64,000 nucleotides of DNA, taken from assembly GCA_007376385.1 (NCBI GenBank), contig VMGC01000003.1:37271-101270 (forward strand), read 5' to 3'. A program made the position numbers and the translations under genes. This DNA is from Parcubacteria group bacterium Gr01-1014_8. GTDB taxonomy: Bacteria; Patescibacteriota; Minisyncoccia; Phycocordibacterales; UBA2100. Positions 84 through 60,320 of this stretch are shown here, piece by piece; the stretch's first letter is position 1, and every line of letters begins with the position of its first letter. The notes below the pieces were generated by a model. It was given only the letters and a program-made list of their open reading frames with translations, had not been told where the DNA came from and ran no database searches.

Positions 84-968
84 CTAGCGGGCATCCAAGG
101 ACTTTTCTGCATCAATGAAGGATTGTATGTCCCCTCCGAGCACTTTTTCAACGTCCCTGCGTTCATGCTCCGTTCTGTGGTCCTTCACCAATTGATATGG
201 ATGGAGCGTGTATGAACGGATCTGACTTCCCCATTCTATCTTTGTCGAAGTGCCTGCCGAAAGTCCTCGCGCCTCCTTATCTTGTGCTTCTTGCCGCATT
301 TTAAACAGTTTCCCTCGAAGCATTTCAAGCGCTTTTTCTCGATTTTGGAGTTGACTCCTCTCGCTCGTGACATGCACGGAGATTCCAGTCGGTTTATGTG
401 TCATTCGCACCGCCGTGTCCCGCTTGTTCACATTTTGTCCGCCTGGACCACCTGAACGTGCAACGGTAATTTCAAGCTCTTGCTCAGGAATGTGCGATTC
501 GCCGACATCGGGTAATTTCGGCAATATCTCAACTAACGAAAAAGAAGTTTGCCTCTTACCTGCAGAATTAAACGGGGACATGCGGACGAGTCTATGAACG
601 CCTGCCTCTCTTTTTAAAGCTCCGAAAACACCGGAGCCCGCTATCTCAAACGAGACGCTTCGGTATCCTCCCATTGTATTTTGATTTGAATCAATAAGTC
701 CTGCCTGCCATCCTTTAGATGCCGCATACTTTCCATACATTTCAAAAAGAATGCGCGAGAAATCCTCCGCATCGTCTCCCCCAGCTCCAGAAACTATCGA
801 CACTATCGCATCCCCTTTGTCGTAGCCTTCACTCCCTGCAAGCTGTTGTTTCAAATGTTGATACTCCTTCAATATTTCCTGCGCTTTATCTTTATTGCTC
901 CAAAAGTCCGGCGCTCTCATCGCTGTCTCAATATCCCCAATTCTTTTTTCGATAAGTTCTTTTTGCAT
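84..968 (-). CDS. prfB: peptide chain release factor 2 (compact form, no programmed frameshift visible)
   Basis: Translation carries the SPF tripeptide ([15 protein letters not shown]) and the GGQ motif ([11 protein letters not shown]). The N-terminus is about 23 aa shorter than E. coli RF2, and the ATG sits 2 nt after a tRNA 3' end. Confidence 0.85.
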
Positions 969-4796: not shown

Positions 4797-4871
4797 GCGC
4801 GAGTGAAGGGACTTGAACCCTCGACCTTTCCCGTGACAGGGGAACGCTCTAACCAGCTGAGCTACACCCGC
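4797..4871 (-). tRNA. tRNA-Asp (anticodon GUC)
   Basis: Acceptor GCGGGTG, D-arm GCTCAGCTGGTTAGAGC, anticodon loop CTGTCAC, T-arm GAGGG-TTCAAGT-CCCTT. The acceptor 3' strand CACTCCGC has one extra C (a bulge) compared with the remnant copy at 4640-4657. Confidence 0.7.
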
Positions 4872-4959
4872 AAGTGAGGAACAAAGAGATGCGTGCACGC
4901 TCTTTTTCCGGACGCCGCGGGTGCATCCTAAACACATCCCGCAAGGCCCGTACAATATA

Positions 4960-5223
4960 TCACTTACGCCTCTTTTTCAAACCTTTATGACCTAAGAGAT
5001 ATTTAACGACATCGATACCCGAAACAGCGGCCCACACGCTATTTGTGAGCATGAACGGAACTACTCCTTGATCATACGCGTAGACGAAAAGACCTACCCC
5101 ACTCACAAAATTGATGAAGTCATACCAAAAACTTTCCGCCTTAAGTTTGCCGTACTCGTTGGCGATAAACGCGGAAAGAGTAAGGAGGGCAGATGCAATG
5201 CCCAGGATTTCTATGCTACTCAC
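4960..5223 (-). CDS. small integral membrane protein (hypothetical, GTG start with AAGG SD)
   Basis: 87 aa with two TM segments and a K/R-rich tail. It starts about 20 nt downstream of tRNA-Met. Confidence 0.5.
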   Translation of the reverse strand: MSSIEILGIASALLTLSAFIANEYGKLKAESFWYDFINFVSGVGLFVYAYDQGVVPFMLTNSVWAAVSGIDVVKYLLGHKGLKKRRK

Positions 5224-5242
5224 CTTAGTATTCTACTACAGG

Positions 5243-5316
5243 TGCTGGGGGACGGGATCGAACCGTCGACCTAGCGCTTATGAAACGCTCGCTCTAACCG
5301 ACTGAGCTACCCCAGC
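5243..5316 (-). tRNA. tRNA-Met elongator (anticodon CAU). Could be tRNA-Ile2 if lysidinylated.
   Basis: Acceptor GCTGGGG/CCCCAGC, anticodon loop TTCATAA, T-arm GACGG-TTCGATC-CCGTC. Confidence 0.8.
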
Positions 5317-5357
5317 GTTTCGCCAGAATAGCATTTTTGACAGGCGACTCAACTATT

Positions 5358-5373
5358 TTGTTGCGGGGGCGGG
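5358..5373. repeat. 16-bp copy of the initiator tRNA 3' end (TTGTTGCGGGGGCGGG)
   Basis: Identical to 5557-5572, the 3' end of the tRNA-fMet gene. Confidence 0.5.
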
Positions 5374-5520
5374 CTTGGTCAGGAATAATTCGCTTGCCGA
5401 CGCAAGCGAATTTTCACGACCCTGGCTCGCAGTCTCGCGCGCGCTCGACATCGCTCCGCCTTGCAAGTCCCGACGAGAAGTGCGAAGGCACTTCTCTCCC
5501 CCGCACAACCCGATCACAGC

Positions 5521-5548
5521 AAAAAATCCGCGCGAGGCGGATTTTTTG
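5521..5548. terminator. bidirectional intrinsic terminator (AAAAAATCCGC-GCGAG-GCGGATTTTTT)
   Basis: Perfect GC-rich stem flanked by A6 and T6, directly 3' of tRNA-fMet. Confidence 0.6.
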
Positions 5549-5556
5549 CTGTACTT

Positions 5557-5629
5557 GTTGCGGGGGCGGGACTTGCACCCGCGACCTTCAGGTTATGAGC
5601 CTGACGAGCTACTACTGCTCCACCCCGCT
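5557..5629 (-). tRNA. initiator tRNA-fMet (anticodon CAU)
   Basis: Near-identical architecture to E. coli tRNAfMet (AGCGGGGTGGAGCAG...CTCATAA...CCCCCGCAAC) with an unpaired 1:72 (A:A). Confidence 0.8.
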
Positions 5630-5826
5630 ACAGATGATGATACCGCGATTGAGACTCCGAACGCAAGCGAATTTTATTTGCGACGTAGAGCGAGTGAAAT
5701 GCAAAAGAGCACTTTTGCATTTCCGAGCCGAGGAGCAAACACAGGTTCAATACCTCGCAGCTTTGCTGCGAGACAGGGCGAGCGAAGCGAGCTCCATAAT
5801 ACCTCGGGGCTTGCTCCGAGGGACCT

Positions 5827-27884: not shown

Positions 27885-27969
27885 AGGGAGGTCCCCTTTG
27901 TTGTCTCCTCGGCTCGGAAATACGAGAAGTTCTGCTCTCACATTCCTCTCGCAACGCTCGCCAATGGTC

Positions 27970-29666: not shown

Positions 29667-29912
29667 AACAATCCGCCCACAAGGACACTTTGGAAACACC
29701 ACAAGAGTACTTCAGAAAATATACTCGTGCCACTCGTTATTTTCTTGGTCACACCTCAAGGGTACTTCCATTTTTCTAAGCCGGAGTACCGGCAAGAAAA
29801 ATTGGTCGCCCACGGTTTTCCAACGGGCTTCGCCCTGCCTTCCTCCACGGGAAACAAAGTGTTTCCCCGACCCCCTTCCTGTCCAAGCGGGCGTCCATTC
29901 ATTTCATTCATG

Positions 29913-29986
29913 TCCGCCCGCTTGGACTCGAACCAAGGACCCTCGAGGTATAAGCTCGATGCTCTAACCAACTGAGCTACGGGCGG
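29913..29986 (-). tRNA. tRNA-Ile (anticodon UAU, reads AUA)
   Basis: Acceptor CCGCCCG/CGGGCGG, anticodon stem ATCGA/TCGAG, loop CTTATAC (anticodon TAT), T-arm CTTGG-TTCGAGT-CCAAG. Confidence 0.65.
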
Positions 29987-36889: not shown

Positions 36890-37277
36890 GGGGGTGACTG
36901 GTTTCGACAGGAAATTCAATGTGCTTGTGTGCAAGACGGAAGTGAGAACCTTCCTAAAAAATCTCAAACTCTAAGTGCAAACAAAACTGCACGGGGGGTT
37001 CTTTCGCCGATTCAGGCGAAAGACCTCGGCCTCGTTTTCGCTTAATCGCCCAAACGACCGTTCGTTCAGCGGGTACTCGATACCGTTGACGCGAGCGTCA
37101 TAACCATCGAGTCCGGTTTCTATTTCACTCCGAGTAGAGACTTAAAGAAAGAGAGTTAGCCGACGTATGCTTTCGTTCATCTTCTACATACATCGGCGAA
37201 TCTTCAAGATGAACTACGTCTTGTAGACGCGCCTGTGCATCATTTCTTGGACTCGAGTTCAATTCTCGACACCTCCA
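36890..37277 (+). ncRNA. ssrA: tmRNA (one-piece SsrA); tag ORF 36977-37045 encodes ANKTARGVLSPIQAKDLGLVFA
   Basis: 5' end GGGGGTGACTGGTTTCGACAGG, tRNA-like T-arm TCGAG-TTCAATT-CTCGA, 3' acceptor CACCTCCA pairing with the 5' end including the G3:U70 Ala identity pair. Resume codon GCA in an AAAAAATCTCAAACTCTAAGT|GCAAAC context like E. coli. Confidence 0.8.
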
Positions 37278-37335
37278 CTCGATTCGCCTCTCGCTAACGC
37301 TTGAGGCTCGCTCGTGGCAAGCCACCAGTCAATAC

Positions 37336-42074: not shown

Positions 42075-42677
42075 TTAATATTTGCGCACTACTGCAGTGA
42101 CCACGGCTTCGATGCGAAACGATTCTTTTGGATAAAGCGCTCGGTAACGCTTATTCGCCGGCTCAAGATAGTATTGTTCTCCTGCCTGCGCCGCGAAGCC
42201 TCGCGTCGCGGCAGGCAGGCCCCGCTTCCGAAGATATTTCATCGTGTACTCGCTATCTATGCACGCAATAACTATTTGCCCCGGCTTGTAAGCACTCCTG
42301 CGCTCGACAATGACCATGTCGCCCGGTTGTATCCCCGCTTCTATCATGGAATCTCCTTTTACTTTCAGAATGTAGCTCATCTCTTTATTCGGCGTGAGAT
42401 ATTCATCGAAATTCATCACGTCGAGAAGCTCTTCCTCTGCAGCTGAAGGAAAGCCAGCCTCTACCAACCCGAGCATCTTTACGCCTTCTTCTAGGTTCTG
42501 TGGCAGAAGTTTCCCCGAGCCGTCCTTTGAGATAACACCCTCTTCTATGAGCGCTTCGATGCGGTAGTTGACCGCGCTCTTTGTTTTGTACCCCCACAAC
42601 TTCATCAATTCAGAGAATGTGGGCATCCTTTGCCGCGAACGATAAAACCCTGCCAGCTTTTCCTTGAATTTTTCCAT
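42075..42677 (-). CDS. lexA: LexA-family repressor (HTH plus S24 peptidase)
   Basis: Winged HTH N-terminus, cleavage-site/Ser-Lys dyad region (KGDSM...K), 200 aa. Confidence 0.8.
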   Translation of the reverse strand: MEKFKEKLAGFYRSRQRMPTFSELMKLWGYKTKSAVNYRIEALIEEGVISKDGSGKLLPQNLEEGVKMLGLVEAGFPSAAEEELLDVMNFDEYLTPNKEMSYILKVKGDSMIEAGIQPGDMVIVERRSAYKPGQIVIACIDSEYTMKYLRKRGLPAATRGFAAQAGEQYYLEPANKRYRALYPKESFRIEAVVTAVVRKY

Positions 42678-45205: not shown

Positions 45206-47857
45206 CTACCGAGGCCGCGTTCCGGACTCCTTGGCTATGTACGAGGCAAGGCCGCCAGGTCTCGAGTAAGCGTACACGTCTTTTATTCCCATATCGTGGG
45301 CGAGCATCAAAACCATCTCTATCAATTGACTCGAAACCGGTGCATCCGGCGTTATCACGATATCGTCCGAAGGAGTCGGATATTTGAGAAGCATGTTGTA
45401 TCCAAGAGAGCTTTCGTCTTCCGGTCTGCTATTAGGAATAACATCAACAAGTGACGCGCCCTCCCTCTGTCCGCCTTTTGGTTTCTTGTGGAATCGCATG
45501 ACCGGATCATGCCCGGCATGAAGGTACTTTCGAACCTCCTCGGCATTTAGGGTACGCGTTACTTTTGGGATCGGCTTTTGCTGATAATCGGACGAGCAGA
45601 TAGATATGCAGACGAGAGCATTGCCATGAGGATCGAGAACGGCAGGCGTCAATAATGCATCATAGGTCGTATGCAAGAGTGCGTTGGCTGAAAGGCTTGT
45701 GCGTGCGATCGCTATCTGCCCAAGAAGGTTATCCTTTTCATCAGCGGCAAGAATGACAAGATGCTTCTGTATGTTCTTTTCATACTCGCTCTTCTCCGGC
45801 GAAAGATTGTCCCAGCACTGTCGGTACAACTCATACGAGGGAGCCATCCATCGTGAATATCGGTGAAGAATGGTAAACCGGATTATCGGTTTCTGGACTC
45901 CTCGGCTCGGAGATGTGGAAACTGTGTTTTCCCACCTCCCTCGCTCTACGTCGCCGGTAAAACGACGTGCCGGCATTTTGAGAAGTCCGAATATTGATTC
46001 AAAACGCTCGTAGGGCAATGTCTTCTTCAAAACGCTCCGCTGCACTTTGCCCGTCGACGTCATCGGCAATTCGTCAGCGGAAAAAGAGGTGAGATACTTC
46101 GGCGTCTCATATGCGCTTAAGTACGCCGTGCCGAATAGAAGCGACAACTTGAGCCGACGTTTGGCCTTCTTCTCATCTGTACCCGCTTTCCAGCAAATGA
46201 CCGCGCCCGCCTCTTCTCCGTAGCGCTCATCGGGAACAGCAACAACGTACACCTGGTCGATCTCAGGAGATATCTTTTTCAAGGCATTCTCAAGAGCAAC
46301 GGGCGAGATGTTAACCCCGCCCTTGATGATGATCTCCCGCTTGCGGCCCTTCAGATAGAAGAATTTCTGCTCGCCAACGACCTTAAAATATCCGATGTCG
46401 CCCGAGAGAAAATATCCGCCTGCCTGCCGCGTCCGACCAGCGCTATATTCACGTCTTAACCATTTTCGACCAAACCCTGTTTTTAAGTTTTTCTCCCGCT
46501 GTACCGCTTCTTTCAACGATGGAAATTCTTCGTGGTGAATAATTCCTATCGGTTTATGCTTTTTGGTGTGCTCGGCGGCTATACCGTTATAATGTTGTCG
46601 CCATCGTTCATGTATATCTTGAGTTTGACCGATATAAAATGAACCATCATCACACTTGATGACATAAACATAGAACATTTCTGGTCGCGGCGCAGGCAGG
46701 TCACGGATGGCCGGCTCATTCGTAACATACCCCTCCATAACGGCAGGCCCGCGTATCACCAGTTCACCTTCTTCTCCTTCACCGAGAAAGTTTCCTTTCT
46801 CATCCGATATCTGCACGTCGGCCCATGACATTGCCGAGCCAATAGAATTTTCCTCTATCAGTTTCTCGTATAGACCAGGGGGCAGTCCCATAGGTACCCC
46901 GGTAACGCGAAGCGCTGTTTCAGTCTGCCCATATCCTTGGTAGAGCGGAATATCGAATTTCGTCATGAACTCTTGCATCGTATGCACGACCACAGGAGCC
47001 GAGCCTATTTGGATGCGATTGAGCCGCAATCCTTTTTTAACGAGCGCGTAACTCTCGGAGCGTCCTACTTGATCGAACAGGATGGATTGCACTATTGATG
47101 TGCAGGTTGCCTGACTTTTCGCAGCCTGCTGCCAGAAATGTGAGTTTGAGTAATTCGGCGTGATCGCAATGCTGCCGCCTGCGAGAAGCGCCGACAGGCA
47201 AAATGTGGTGGAATTTATGTGGTGCAACGGGAGGTTTACCAGAAACCTGTCTTCTTCTGTCATGTGAAGCCATTCCTTGATGCCTTCTGCGTTCACAACA
47301 AGGTTATTGAGAGTCAGTTTTGCTCCTTTTGGATACCCTGTAGTCCCTGATGTAAATAAAATAAGGGCACAATGTGAAAGACCGGATTCCCAGGCTACCG
47401 GTCTATCTGTAATATCGGCAAATCCCGCAAATTCCTGGACTTTGACTTCTTTCAAAAAAATACTCTCAATATTTTTAAGCGCCTCCTTTTCTGCTATCAA
47501 TAATGTTGCGTTGTTTATTTTTAATTTGTATTGATACAACTCGCCGGTATCTCGCTTAGTATCGAGTGGAACAGTTACGACTCCGATACTCCACGCAGCC
47601 CAGCTTATTATGAGGAGTTCGGGCGAATTCTTAAATGCGAGAGCTACTCTATCGCCTCGTTTGATATCAAGCGCGTATAAATAGAGCGCAGCCTGTTTGA
47701 TTTTCTGCAGCAATTCTTTGTACGTGATCTCCCCCGAGATCGTTCCTTCGTGATCACACGAGAGGAGCGCGACTTTTCCCGGATTCTTTTGCGAGAGAGC
47801 AGAAATGTGCGAGTAGAGGCTTTGTATGGAAGCATGCTGCATAACAATCATCCTCAA
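45206..47857 (-). CDS. AMP-dependent synthetase/ligase (ANL superfamily) with an in-frame GIY-YIG nuclease domain insertion and a roughly 280-aa C-terminal domain of unknown function
   Basis: AMP-binding motif LFTSGTTGYPKGA, core GYGQTE, and the C-subdomain motif GGYFLSGDIGYF...GRKREIIIKGGVNISPVALE. Between them, about aa 388-478 are a complete GIY-YIG module (FYVYVIKCDDGSFYIGQT...R...E...N). The ORF is continuous, 883 aa. Confidence 0.7.
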   Translation of the reverse strand: MRMIVMQHASIQSLYSHISALSQKNPGKVALLSCDHEGTISGEITYKELLQKIKQAALYLYALDIKRGDRVALAFKNSPELLIISWAAWSIGVVTVPLDTKRDTGELYQYKLKINNATLLIAEKEALKNIESIFLKEVKVQEFAGFADITDRPVAWESGLSHCALILFTSGTTGYPKGAKLTLNNLVVNAEGIKEWLHMTEEDRFLVNLPLHHINSTTFCLSALLAGGSIAITPNYSNSHFWQQAAKSQATCTSIVQSILFDQVGRSESYALVKKGLRLNRIQIGSAPVVVHTMQEFMTKFDIPLYQGYGQTETALRVTGVPMGLPPGLYEKLIEENSIGSAMSWADVQISDEKGNFLGEGEEGELVIRGPAVMEGYVTNEPAIRDLPAPRPEMFYVYVIKCDDGSFYIGQTQDIHERWRQHYNGIAAEHTKKHKPIGIIHHEEFPSLKEAVQREKNLKTGFGRKWLRREYSAGRTRQAGGYFLSGDIGYFKVVGEQKFFYLKGRKREIIIKGGVNISPVALENALKKISPEIDQVYVVAVPDERYGEEAGAVICWKAGTDEKKAKRRLKLSLLFGTAYLSAYETPKYLTSFSADELPMTSTGKVQRSVLKKTLPYERFESIFGLLKMPARRFTGDVERGRWENTVSTSPSRGVQKPIIRFTILHRYSRWMAPSYELYRQCWDNLSPEKSEYEKNIQKHLVILAADEKDNLLGQIAIARTSLSANALLHTTYDALLTPAVLDPHGNALVCISICSSDYQQKPIPKVTRTLNAEEVRKYLHAGHDPVMRFHKKPKGGQREGASLVDVIPNSRPEDESSLGYNMLLKYPTPSDDIVITPDAPVSSQLIEMVLMLAHDMGIKDVYAYSRPGGLASYIAKESGTRPR

Positions 47858-50455: not shown

Positions 50456-51274
50456 ATGCATGCGTTCTATATTGCGCTTCTCGCTCTCGTCATTCTCGCC
50501 CTGACCGTGGCGACAACATGGTACCCGCCCTCATCGTCGAATAGCCAGCTCGCATCGCCATCTCTAGAAACTGTCGCGCCGGAGACAGAAATGTCGGAAG
50601 CGACGGAAGGAGAGAAAAAAGAGACATATCGGGTGGTAAAGGTTGTCGACGGCGATACGCTCGCTCTCGAAATGGGCGGAAACAGCGTCACGGTGAGACT
50701 TATTGGTCTTGATACGCCTGAAACACTCGACCCCCGTAAACCCGTGCAATGCTTTGGAAAAGAGGCGACGGAACATGCGAAAAAATTACTAGAAGGAAGG
50801 CGTGTGTCTATCGAAAAGGACCCGACACAAGGAGAATTGGACAAATACGGCCGCCTGCTGGTCTATGTGTATTTACCCGACCTGCCTGCCGAAGCCTCGG
50901 CGCAGGCAGGTGGCTTGATGTTCAACGAACAAATGATATCGGAAGGTTACGGGCATGAGTACACATATAATATTCCTTACAAATATCAAACGGAATTTAA
51001 AGCCGCGGAAAATAAAGCGCGAGAGAGGAAACGAGGTCTCTGGGCTGATAATGCGTGCGCCGAGGAATCAATGCGTGCACCAACCACTGCTGAAAAACCT
51101 ATCGTGGTTGTGCCGTCGGGAAATTATGACTGCACTCGCAATACATATAATTGCTCAAGTTTTAGAACGCAGACCGATGCGCAAGCCGCCTTTGGATCGT
51201 GCGGCGGGTCGGAGAACGATATACACAAACTTGATAGTGATAAAGACGGGACTGTGTGCGAGAGCCTTCCGTAA
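50456..51274 (+). CDS. secreted thermonuclease (SNase-like) with a C-terminal Excalibur Ca-binding domain
   Basis: N-terminal TM/signal, SNase core (VVDGDT...RLIGLDTPE...YGRLL.YVY), C-terminal DxDxDGxxCE loop (DSDKDGTVCE). Confidence 0.75.
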   Translation: MHAFYIALLALVILALTVATTWYPPSSSNSQLASPSLETVAPETEMSEATEGEKKETYRVVKVVDGDTLALEMGGNSVTVRLIGLDTPETLDPRKPVQCFGKEATEHAKKLLEGRRVSIEKDPTQGELDKYGRLLVYVYLPDLPAEASAQAGGLMFNEQMISEGYGHEYTYNIPYKYQTEFKAAENKARERKRGLWADNACAEESMRAPTTAEKPIVVVPSGNYDCTRNTYNCSSFRTQTDAQAAFGSCGGSENDIHKLDSDKDGTVCESLP

Positions 51275-60062: not shown

Positions 60063-60320
60063 CTAAGTTTGGTCTTGGCGACTTTCGGAAAGACGTTGCC
60101 TAAGCTTCGATTTAGCATATCCGCGATATTTTAACTGATGTTCGCGCCGACGTGCATCACCTTCAGCACGATAGGCTTCGTAATATATCAAGGTCCACTT
60201 ATGTTTTCGCGTAAATTTTGACTTTCCCTTAATATGCTCAGAAAGTCGCCGCCTCAGATCGTTTGTCGAACCTACGTACAGCAAACCGTCCTGATTTTCC
60301 AGAACATATACGTAATGCAT
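60063..60320 (-). CDS. GIY-YIG nuclease superfamily small protein
   Basis: YVYVLENQDGLLYVGSTNDLRRRLSEH...E...N is the canonical GIY-YIG core in an 85-aa standalone protein. It is paralogous to the insertion in the 45206-47857 gene. Confidence 0.75.
   Translation of the reverse strand: MHYVYVLENQDGLLYVGSTNDLRRRLSEHIKGKSKFTRKHKWTLIYYEAYRAEGDARRREHQLKYRGYAKSKLRQRLSESRQDQT

Follow-up and report, generated by a model that had tools for sequence, protein, structure and literature searches.

An in-frame GIY-YIG nuclease cassette with inverted-repeat ends in a Parcubacteria acyl-CoA synthetase gene, probably a member of a dispersed selfish element family

Introduction

Inteins with a homing endonuclease are selfish elements that lie in frame within a gene and are translated within the host protein, and the nuclease they carry works for the element rather than for the host. 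The same appears to apply to the subject of this report, a 282-nucleotide (nt) cassette that encodes a nuclease domain of the GIY-YIG superfamily and lies within a gene for an ANL-family acyl-CoA synthetase of Parcubacteria group bacterium Gr01-1014_8. The gene is located on a stretch of 64,000 nt (assembly GCA_007376385.1, contig VMGC01000003.1, positions 37,271 to 101,270 of the forward strand), which is called the window here and to which all positions refer. In contrast to inteins, the cassette lacks a Hint/splicing domain as well as splice residues, its nuclease consists of the GIY-YIG domain alone and is not a LAGLIDADG or HNH enzyme, its DNA ends in inverted repeats, it is accompanied by miniature elements that consist of the ends only (minis), and it presumably stays in the protein.

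The minis are reminiscent of the Rickettsia palindromic elements (RPEs), which are palindromic repeats translated in frame, with inserts tolerated at protein surfaces. RPEs, reportedly described by Ogata et al. in 2000, are about 100-150 bp long and restricted to Rickettsia, and we know of no autonomous protein-encoding partner for them. The minis described here measure 18-39 nt, are spread over many phyla and have the same ends as a nuclease cassette; the comparison with RPEs (named in PMC1779305 and PMC10969869) covered size and hosts, and both differ. REP/REPIN-RAYT systems share with the cassette a nuclease-type gene that is flanked by inverted short palindromic repeats, with short derivatives dispersed in the genome. 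However, RAYTs belong to the HUH/Y1 enzymes and bring expression signals of their own, and REPs lie outside genes, whereas the cassette encodes a GIY-YIG enzyme, is intragenic and in frame, and its enzyme gene itself occupies many different sites.

Free-standing and intron-encoded homing endonucleases of the GIY-YIG type (I-TevI, Seg proteins) have the same catalytic domain and a selfish lifestyle, and recurrent cassette sites in HsdS, HsdM and MsrB resemble homing. Unlike the cassette, these enzymes possess DNA-binding modules at the C-terminus, have start and stop codons of their own and recognise long, specific targets; the cassette encodes 94 amino acids (aa) of the Slx1/UPF0213 branch, only GAC/G (a slash marks the junction throughout) is conserved at its junctions and no intron is involved. 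It differs from group I and group II introns with an endonuclease open reading frame (ORF) in having no Rfam ribozyme match and in being frame-continuous into the downstream host in 60 of 60 copies. Terminal inverted repeats, which covary in the cassette, are shared with insertion sequences and miniature inverted-repeat transposable elements, but neither a target-site duplication nor a known transposase class was found. By the defining tests of these groups, the cassette is not an intein, a REP/RAYT system, an intron, a classical homing endonuclease or a member of a known transposon class, and it is probably no RPE.

The insertion of an Slx1-like GIY-YIG domain in the HsdR protein MCA0838 of Methylococcus capsulatus was described by Dunin-Horkawicz et al. 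(2006, PMC1564403). This insert, compared here by description only, is probably a member of the cassette family. In that report it stands as an isolated curiosity, and terminal repeats, an in-frame rule, a host range or minis are not described (PMC1564403). A literature search that covered full texts, with few subscription journals among them, yielded no description of these four features, the MCA0838 case being the only related item, and the cassette family is apparently undescribed.

Results

The cassette and the gene in which it resides comprise the following features.

46418..46699, minus strand: 282-nt in-frame cassette, aa 387-480, LPAPRPEM...GRTRQAG, missing from all 120 best homologs
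46680..46700, minus strand: left terminal inverted repeat (C)CTGCCTGCGCCGCGACCAG, read LPAPRP
46472..46678, minus strand: GIY-YIG catalytic core of UPF0213/Slx1 type, aa 394-462 (PF01541, E 5e-15; 1ZG2 and 1YWL, E 1e-14)
46418..46440, minus strand: right terminal inverted repeat CTGGTCGGACGCGGCAGGCAGGC, read GRTRQAG
45206..47851, minus strand: host gene, ANL-family acyl-CoA synthetase with a C-terminal GNAT-like domain (Pfam, NCBIfam, homolog alignment, 5ie0, public gene call)
46727..47791, minus strand: ANL N-terminal AMP-binding domain, aa 23-377 (PF00501, E 6e-61)
46046..46291, minus strand: ANL C-terminal subdomain AMP-binding_C, aa 523-604 (PF13193; 5ie0 alignment)
45209..45880, minus strand: conserved C-terminal GNAT-like domain of decarboxylase type, aa 660-883

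An alignment with 13 homologs places the 94 residues of the cassette between ...EPAIRD and GYFLSGD.... Its coding strand runs CTGCCTGCGCCGCGACCAG AA ATG TTC ... GCG CTGGTCGGACGCGGCAGGCAG GC and its ends form imperfect terminal inverted repeats of ~18-20 bp, which were paired in a single-strand fold prediction of the window copy (-40.1 kcal/mol, z -2.2). The cassette is preceded by an Asp codon (GAC) and followed by a codon whose first base is G, and the reading frame runs straight through. In oxalate-CoA ligase 5ie0, to which both ANL domains can be aligned, the insertion point corresponds to the position between residues 380 and 387. This is just before motif A7 (FLSGD) and ~24 residues ahead of the A8 hinge (GRKRE), near the hinge and outside it; motifs A7 and A8 (aa 483-514) follow directly after the cassette.

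To compare the locus with its relatives, the 120 best of 1113 homologs (630-810 aa, named mostly Kaiserbacteria, Parcubacteria or Patescibacteria) were used, and PF01541 was found in none of these 120. The cassette is also missing from orthologs that share the gene neighbourhood (DUF3298, ANL, alcohol dehydrogenase). Empty sites of orthologs read CGA GAT/GGG TAT and CAG AAC/GGA TAT, whereas the window reads CGT GAC/282 nt/GGA TAT. The host ORF (45206-47857, minus strand) encodes 883 aa from a TTG start, and the public call from the ATG at 47851 gives 881 aa. In an exact-product look-up the 881-aa product was identical on 3 contigs, unlike the products from the TTG start and from the third Met, for which no match was found; the identity on 3 contigs argues against a one-off mis-assembly.

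An earlier note on the window, made from the sequence alone, had proposed a GIY-YIG module in frame inside an ANL synthetase. This is borne out by the three-domain order in Pfam and by the lack of the insert in 120 of 120 best homologs; the homolog alignment that the note had called for showed the insert to be absent elsewhere, and it is not the case that homologs universally carry it. The extent had been estimated as 46424-46696, which is about right, the alignment giving 46418-46699. A location exactly at the inter-domain hinge did not hold, as the insert precedes A7 and lies ahead of the A8 hinge in the 5ie0 alignment. What the note described as a further 280-aa C-terminal domain does exist but comprises ~224 aa, is GNAT-like of the decarboxylase type, is conserved in all orthologs and is no part of the insertion event. 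Finally, the note had assigned the free-standing 85-aa gene at 60063-60320 to the same family; it is indeed a GIY-YIG gene, but a distant one, as detailed below.

Distribution of the family was investigated with a word-based search, in which the 94-aa peptide retrieved six metagenomic proteins of 55-60% identity. All six carry (D/N)-LPAPR...GIY-YIG...ARQAG within unrelated flanks, and one also contains the tandem mini LPAPPSEATRQAG. A profile built from seven sequences (the window copy and these six relatives) was then searched against 1.84 billion cluster representatives, giving 20,643 matches at E<=1e-3, 3,321 at E<=1e-10 and 138 at E<=1e-30. Among the top 150 the cassette nearly always lay within a protein of 100-1100 aa, its position differing from protein to protein. 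Pfam detected GIY-YIG in 123 of 123 top matches scanned, and the commonest host domain was Methylase_S (HsdS), present in 59 of these 123 proteins. Other hosts included DUF1156, SelR/MsrB, HSDR_N, pseudouridine synthase, trigger factor, type III methylase, HsdM_N, NOV_C, TatD, QueC, hexose dehydratase, N6_Mtase, cobalamin adenosyltransferase, SWI2/SNF2, TrmD, DUF559, ArgRS, MGMT and TfoX.

In a scan of one genome per GTDB species 164 copies were found, of which 80 loci were kept. These belong to many Patescibacteria lineages, Desulfobacterota, Nitrospira, Verrucomicrobia, Planctomycetes, Bacteroidota, Acidobacteria, Gammaproteobacteria and one archaeon. Complete genomes with the cassette include OY771548.1, OZ000552.1 and CAXXCO010000002.1. 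HsdS accounts for about half of the best copies (P0127-P0275; L012, L018, L022, L025-L027, L031, L055, L070 and others), and one HsdS protein of 655 aa (P0127) harbors two cassettes. On a marine metagenome contig (L001, 1-760) the cassette lies in the last ~60 codons of an HsdM gene; in our reading of the sequence the end of an IS30-like transposase gene has taken the place of the upstream part of HsdM, and cassette and HsdM tail are still called as a 143-aa gene. A separate situation was seen in Bacteroidales and relatives (L052, L058, L064, L071, L081, L084), where proteins of ~1200 aa have the same GIY-YIG core at one fixed site. This core is without LPAPRP/RQAG ends and is preceded by WPVCVQRTGRK, which resembles a decayed mini in the PAC..GR frame, and in L060 a canonical cassette occupies the same place. 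The end-less cores are probably an old insertion, fixed or decaying.

Next, the nuclease was assigned to a branch of its superfamily. The cassette profile matched the UPF0213 proteins 1ZG2 (BH0048) and 1YWL (EF2693) with E about 1e-14, eukaryotic SLX1 with E about 3e-3 and I-TevI with 0.14 only. Because the matches rank UPF0213 ahead of SLX1 and SLX1 ahead of I-TevI, the nuclease is placed, on these profile comparisons, in the Slx1/UPF0213 branch, which is defined by the missing C-terminal Asn (Dunin-Horkawicz et al., PMC1564403). The window copy holds the catalytic Tyr, Tyr, Gly, Arg and Glu (FYVYV, FYIGQT, ERWRQH, REKNLK) and every residue whose conservation among 149 family members reaches 90% or more (Y, C, S, Y, G, R, H, G, T, P, E, A, R, E and LKTG.GR.W). 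GIY-YIG and the related T5orf172 were the sole Pfam families to match the cassette; Pfam revealed no known transposase class (DDE, HUH, Ser/Tyr recombinase), and the 94-aa core is all there is, with no DNA-binding domain detected by Pfam. A Met at the start of the nuclease is not conserved among the window copy and the six relatives. PADLOC defence models gave marginal matches only (E>=5e-3).

The relation of the cassettes to the reading frames of their hosts was analyzed with 60 unique genomic copies, defined by their DNA ends alone, 200-420 nt apart. In every one of the 60 the length is divisible by 3 and internal stops are absent. The open host frame extends over a median of 293 codons on the upstream side and 120 on the downstream side, compared with 9-16 codons in the shifted frames. 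It remains open for at least 50 codons upstream together with at least 20 downstream in 54 of the 60 copies, the shifted frames scoring 4 and 2.

All 60 unique copies keep the family ends CCTGCCTGCGCCGCG...CGCGGCAGGCAGG, read LPAPRP...RQAG. The left CTGCCTGCGCCGCG(N)CC and the right GG(N)CGG(R)CGCGGCAGGCAGG are near-invariant, four-fold degenerate codon positions included. The third position of the left Arg codon and that of the right Gly codon form a Watson-Crick pair in 27 of 34 cases (A-T 7, G-C 15, C-G 3, T-A 2), a value reached in 0 of 20,000 permutations with kinship among the copies ignored. In a three-segment stem (alignment A10) 93% of positions were paired, and its covariation score was 0.093 as compared with 0.047 in shuffles (0 of 500 as high) and at most 0.03 with slid partners, kinship being ignored here as well. 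These patterns indicate that the repeat ends are constrained as nucleic acid. The left Leu codon of LPAP occurs in the synonymous variants CTG, TTA, TTG and CTA.

At 50 distinct host sites the bases preceding the cassette were G in 43, A in 38 and C in 44 (GAC, Asp) and the first following base was G in 34; beyond GAC/G the junction flanks hold little information. Several sites recur, namely LVPQDPND/EPASVLLE and RQEGRx/YEPAS in HsdS, EDD/G(I or V)PFEEKM at the C-terminus of HsdM, HLGHVFDD/GP..TGKR in MsrB and LKKEKAPD/GSKDENVF in a family of large proteins. Two cassettes from one metagenome-assembled genome of the Bacteroidota (L072 and L073) are 94% identical, whereas their 300-nt flanks share 72% and 62% identity. 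Likewise, cassettes in unrelated genes share 82% (L028/L042) and 80% (L014/L033) identity. Since cassettes are more alike than their flanks or host genes, we infer that the cassette moves, both between paralogous sites and into new genes.

Apart from the cassette, the window contains two minis in frame within other genes.

42181..42219, minus strand: 39-nt mini CCTGCCTGCGCCGCGAAGCCTCGCGTCGCGGCAGGCAGG, in frame in the LexA-like gene 42075-42677, read LPAATRGFAAQAG
50881..50910, plus strand: 30-nt mini CCTGCCTGCCGAAGCCTCGGCGCAGGCAGG, in frame in the SNase-like gene 50456-51274, read LPAEASAQAG

In a relaxed scan of the window these were the only two, against 0.03 expected, and dinucleotide shuffles expect 0 matches. 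Both are predicted to fold into hairpins, of -18.7 kcal/mol (z -4.3) in the LexA-like and -13.8 kcal/mol (z -3.8) in the SNase-like gene. The former reads KRG-LPAATRGFAAQAG-EQYYLEPAN, and the alignment with E. coli LexA breaks exactly at the mini. The latter reads YLPD-LPAEASAQAG-GLMFNE and corresponds to an 11-column gap against SNase at an Asp-Gly turn; ~20 of 22 aligned SNase orthologs have no insert at all at this site. One SNase ortholog (P0289 / L211) has an 18-nt perfect palindrome only, CCTGCCTGC/GCAGGCAGG (LPAQAG), at the same D/G site. This palindrome, CCTGCCTGCGCAGGCAGG, could be an excision footprint, the result of internal decay of an older copy, or a sign of an insertion hot spot. 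A lone CTGCCTGC half-site after C at 701-708 (plus strand), with no partner arm nearby, could be due to chance or could be the relic of a mini.

Minis are also found beside full cassettes in the species-genome loci, and a scan of metagenome contigs for the exact pattern CTGCCTGCGCCG N2-16 CGGCAGGCAG gave at least 120 stretches. Full length was taken as the matched core plus the flanking C and G, and the counts that follow are among the matches listed. The full length was 27, 30, 33, 36 or 39 nt in 124 of 127 minis (70 of 73 distinct sequences), and 109 of 127 lie inside stop-free ORFs of at least 100 aa. They are read in the frames LPA..QAG (61), PAC..GR (29) and xCL..RQ (18). The commonest form, 37 of the 127, has the same 28-nt core as the mini in the SNase-like gene of the window. 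The step-of-three lengths are as expected under selection for frame preservation and argue against splicing and ribosomal bypass. Programmed translational bypassing, as in the 'byp' elements of yeast mitochondria, was considered for the minis and rejected, because their lengths are divisible by 3 and they show no stops and no matching take-off and landing codons.

The ANL core motifs A3, A5, A7, A8 and A10 of the host enzyme are all intact (TSGTTGYPKG, GYGQTE, FLSGD, GRKREIIIKGG, TSTGKVQR). NCBIfam models for long-chain-fatty-acid, o-succinylbenzoate and malonyl-CoA ligases match the host, each under its cut-off, and NCBIfam, the 5ie0 alignment and a fold search place the ANL part near malonyl- and oxalyl-CoA synthetases. 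The C-terminal domain of ~224 aa is present in all 13 homologs aligned and had zero Pfam matches even at E<=10. Its structure was predicted on its own, since a fold search with the full-length model returned ANL enzymes only; aa 660-883 adopt a predicted GNAT fold whose nearest relatives are in the decarboxylase subgroup (CurA GNAT_L / malonyl-CoA decarboxylase type), with H790 invariant and Ser/Cys residues conserved. Since the ANL part resembles these synthetases, it is a reasonable guess that the host, an enzyme conserved in Parcubacteria, joins a dicarboxylate-CoA ligase to an acyl-CoA decarboxylase, a matter apart from the cassette. As every ANL motif is intact, the ANL-GNAT enzyme is probably a passive host that remains active.

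A full-length AlphaFold2 model of the host had a mean predicted local distance difference test score (pLDDT) of 84.7, with the N-domain, C-subdomain and C-terminal domain mostly >85. The cassette, effectively a single-sequence region with a pLDDT of 52-70, showed the expected beta-beta-alpha-beta-alpha-alpha pattern; alignment depth was lacking there, the combined MAFFT alignment having put cassette sequences onto LPLHH of the ANL domain.

Two further features of the window bear on the ANL gene and on the nuclease.

45881..45967, minus strand: second private in-frame insert of 87 nt with flanks CGTTTTACC and CGGTTTACC, predicted disordered (alignment with 13 homologs)
60063..60320, minus strand: free-standing 85-aa GIY-YIG gene (PF01541, E 9e-16), not part of the element

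The second insert (28-29 aa, pLDDT <50) lies between ...GLLKMPA and RFTILH..., that is between the ANL C-subdomain and the C-terminal domain, and CGTTTTACC and CGGTTTACC form an imperfect 9-bp direct repeat around it. It belongs to a repeat family unrelated to the cassette, with the arms GCGACGTAGAGCGAG and CCGAGCCGAGGAG and a variable hairpin between them; intergenic relatives are located at 5680-5735 (plus strand), beside a tRNA-Met gene (5557-5629), and at ~27890-27960 (minus strand), between convergent genes. One ANL gene has therefore received two unrelated in-frame insertions. The free-standing gene was considered as the donor of the cassette and rejected, as the two are 36% identical (tblastn) and no cassette-type inverted repeats occur nearby. 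In addition, the window contains a tRNA cluster at 4797-5629, a tRNA-Ile gene with the anticodon TAT (UAU) at 29912-29986 (minus strand) and a tmRNA at 36890-37278.

Discussion

The 282-nt insert is probably a copy of a selfish cassette that resides within reading frames, with a GIY-YIG ORF lacking its own start and stop and with inverted-repeat ends. Its absence from orthologs in the same neighbourhood, the inverted repeats, the dozens of unrelated hosts and the minis in the window all accord with the mobile or selfish in-frame insertion that the earlier note had suggested. With less assurance, though on the favourable side of even, we propose that the family represents a new class of prokaryotic mobile element: an inverted-repeat cassette whose sole gene is an Slx1/UPF0213-type GIY-YIG nuclease without translation signals, which would be active only in frame, would target GAC/G (the Asp-Gly turn) and would spawn hairpin derivatives of 18-39 nt in reading frames across phyla.

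The host ribosome presumably translates the cassette together with the host gene, the nuclease being made as an extra lobe of the host protein. In the cycle envisaged for such an element, expression would occur only via the host gene, so that only in-frame copies would be active. The nuclease might nick or cut DNA at short GAC/G-like sites or at a hairpin or cruciform of the repeats. Slx1 is a structure-specific nuclease that acts on flaps and Holliday junctions, and by analogy action of an Slx1-type nuclease on a hairpin or cruciform of the inverted repeats would fit. Recombinational repair by the host may then copy or re-insert the element, in a homing-like manner between paralogous sites such as the conserved regions of HsdS and HsdM, and rarer ectopic events may seed new genes such as this ANL gene. 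Purifying selection on the hosts would leave only frame-keeping insertions in tolerant surface turns of the Asp-Gly type; Asp-Gly is a classic turn. The excess of DNA-binding hosts (HsdS, HsdM, HsdR, methyltransferases) might mean that the nuclease is delivered to DNA by the host protein, and might just as well be due to restriction-modification genes being dispensable and horizontally mobile.

Several explanations compete with this one. The palindromic ends could themselves be the real mobile unit, moved by a host process or an outside factor, with the GIY-YIG ORF as cargo or a later insertion into the loop, or with the nuclease spreading the minis only, in a RAYT-like manner. Minis far outnumber full cassettes, one identical 30-nt mini recurs across phyla, an orthologous SNase gene holds a bare 18-nt palindrome at the same site, and the nuclease has no DNA-binding domain in Pfam, all of which would suit such a unit. 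However, the nuclease lineage and the ends invariably occur together, in 60 of 60 unique genomic copies and more than 100 cluster representatives, at 50 or more different host sites, so the ORF travels with the ends, and its catalytic residues are conserved; we consider this explanation unlikely. It is also rather improbable that the insert is removed after transcription or translation, as a new intron-like element or unusual intein, to leave a mature ANL enzyme without it. Paired ends with compensatory changes would bring the junctions together, and the synonymous variation of the left Leu codon suggests a protein-level role of the termini. On the other hand, Rfam gave no match at E<=1 in 45700-46900 (matches at gathering score in the window are tRNAs and the tmRNA only), and neither Pfam nor NCBIfam matches include a Hint/intein domain, the 94 aa being filled by the GIY-YIG core. 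Leu is the first residue of the cassette and Ala-Gly are the last two, the residue that follows is variable (G, E, Y, K, D, H), and neither Cys/Ser/Thr nucleophiles nor a His-Asn pair are present, in agreement with the earlier note, which saw no intein splicing motifs. Above all, 60 of 60 cassettes and, among the matches listed, 124 of 127 minis are divisible by 3 and contain no stops. Such constraints on frame and length are expected only if the sequence is translated and are not needed for sequence that is removed as RNA, which favours read-through.

The other possibility raised in the earlier note was a functional nuclease-ligase fusion, in which the host enzyme would have recruited the GIY-YIG domain for its own function, and the intact frame and conserved catalytic residues are compatible with it. 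Yet the module occurs sporadically and irrespective of the host protein: it is missing from the 120 closest homologs and from same-neighbourhood orthologs, the same cassette occurs in functionally unrelated hosts, and inverted repeats and mini derivatives are hallmarks of mobile elements, which makes a recruited domain very improbable. The window comes from a metagenome-assembled genome, and a mis-assembly joining two genes had been mentioned in the earlier note. An assembly chimera or sequencing artefact can nearly be dismissed in view of the identical 881-aa product on 3 contigs, the precise, in-frame junctions and the same architecture in hundreds of independent assemblies.

A number of observations weigh against the selfish cassette that we favour. 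The cassette was not found in PLSDB plasmids (zero matches) or in GenBank phages, where two Staphylococcus records gave just generic 37% GIY-YIG matches, and IMG/VR contributed one weak partial match only, so that these collections provide no carrier to explain the spread between phyla. When the window insert was compared with the empty ortholog sites, no target-site duplication was seen, with at most 1 nt of ambiguity; of the searches for further copies and for duplications that the earlier note had proposed, the former yielded the two end-only minis in the window and the latter nothing. The nearest ANL orthologs are just 69% identical, and a recent filled/empty pair is not available for this gene. 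The variation of the left Leu codon points to an additional protein-level constraint on LPAP...QAG, which lies outside the reach of the proposed model. Confidence of the AlphaFold2 model is low in the cassette region, so that a structurally independent lobe is putative. Lastly, nuclease activity and transposition are putative for all members.

If the proposed class is real, it would constitute a third way for selfish DNA to persist inside genes: introns leave the RNA, inteins leave the protein, and the cassette would stay as a tolerated lobe or loop. It would be the first transposon- or homing-type DNA element built on an Slx1-like GIY-YIG nuclease and would provide a concrete biological role for the large orphan UPF0213/YhbQ family. 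Hundreds to thousands of odd loops and 'domain fusions' in metagenomic proteins, above all those of type I restriction subunits and of Patescibacteria (candidate phyla radiation) genomes, would then be parasitic insertions and not functional architectures, and the LPA...QAG signature can be used by annotators to recognise them. In many protein folds the cassette points to places where insertions are naturally tolerated, and it may offer a compact nuclease module that works while embedded in another protein.

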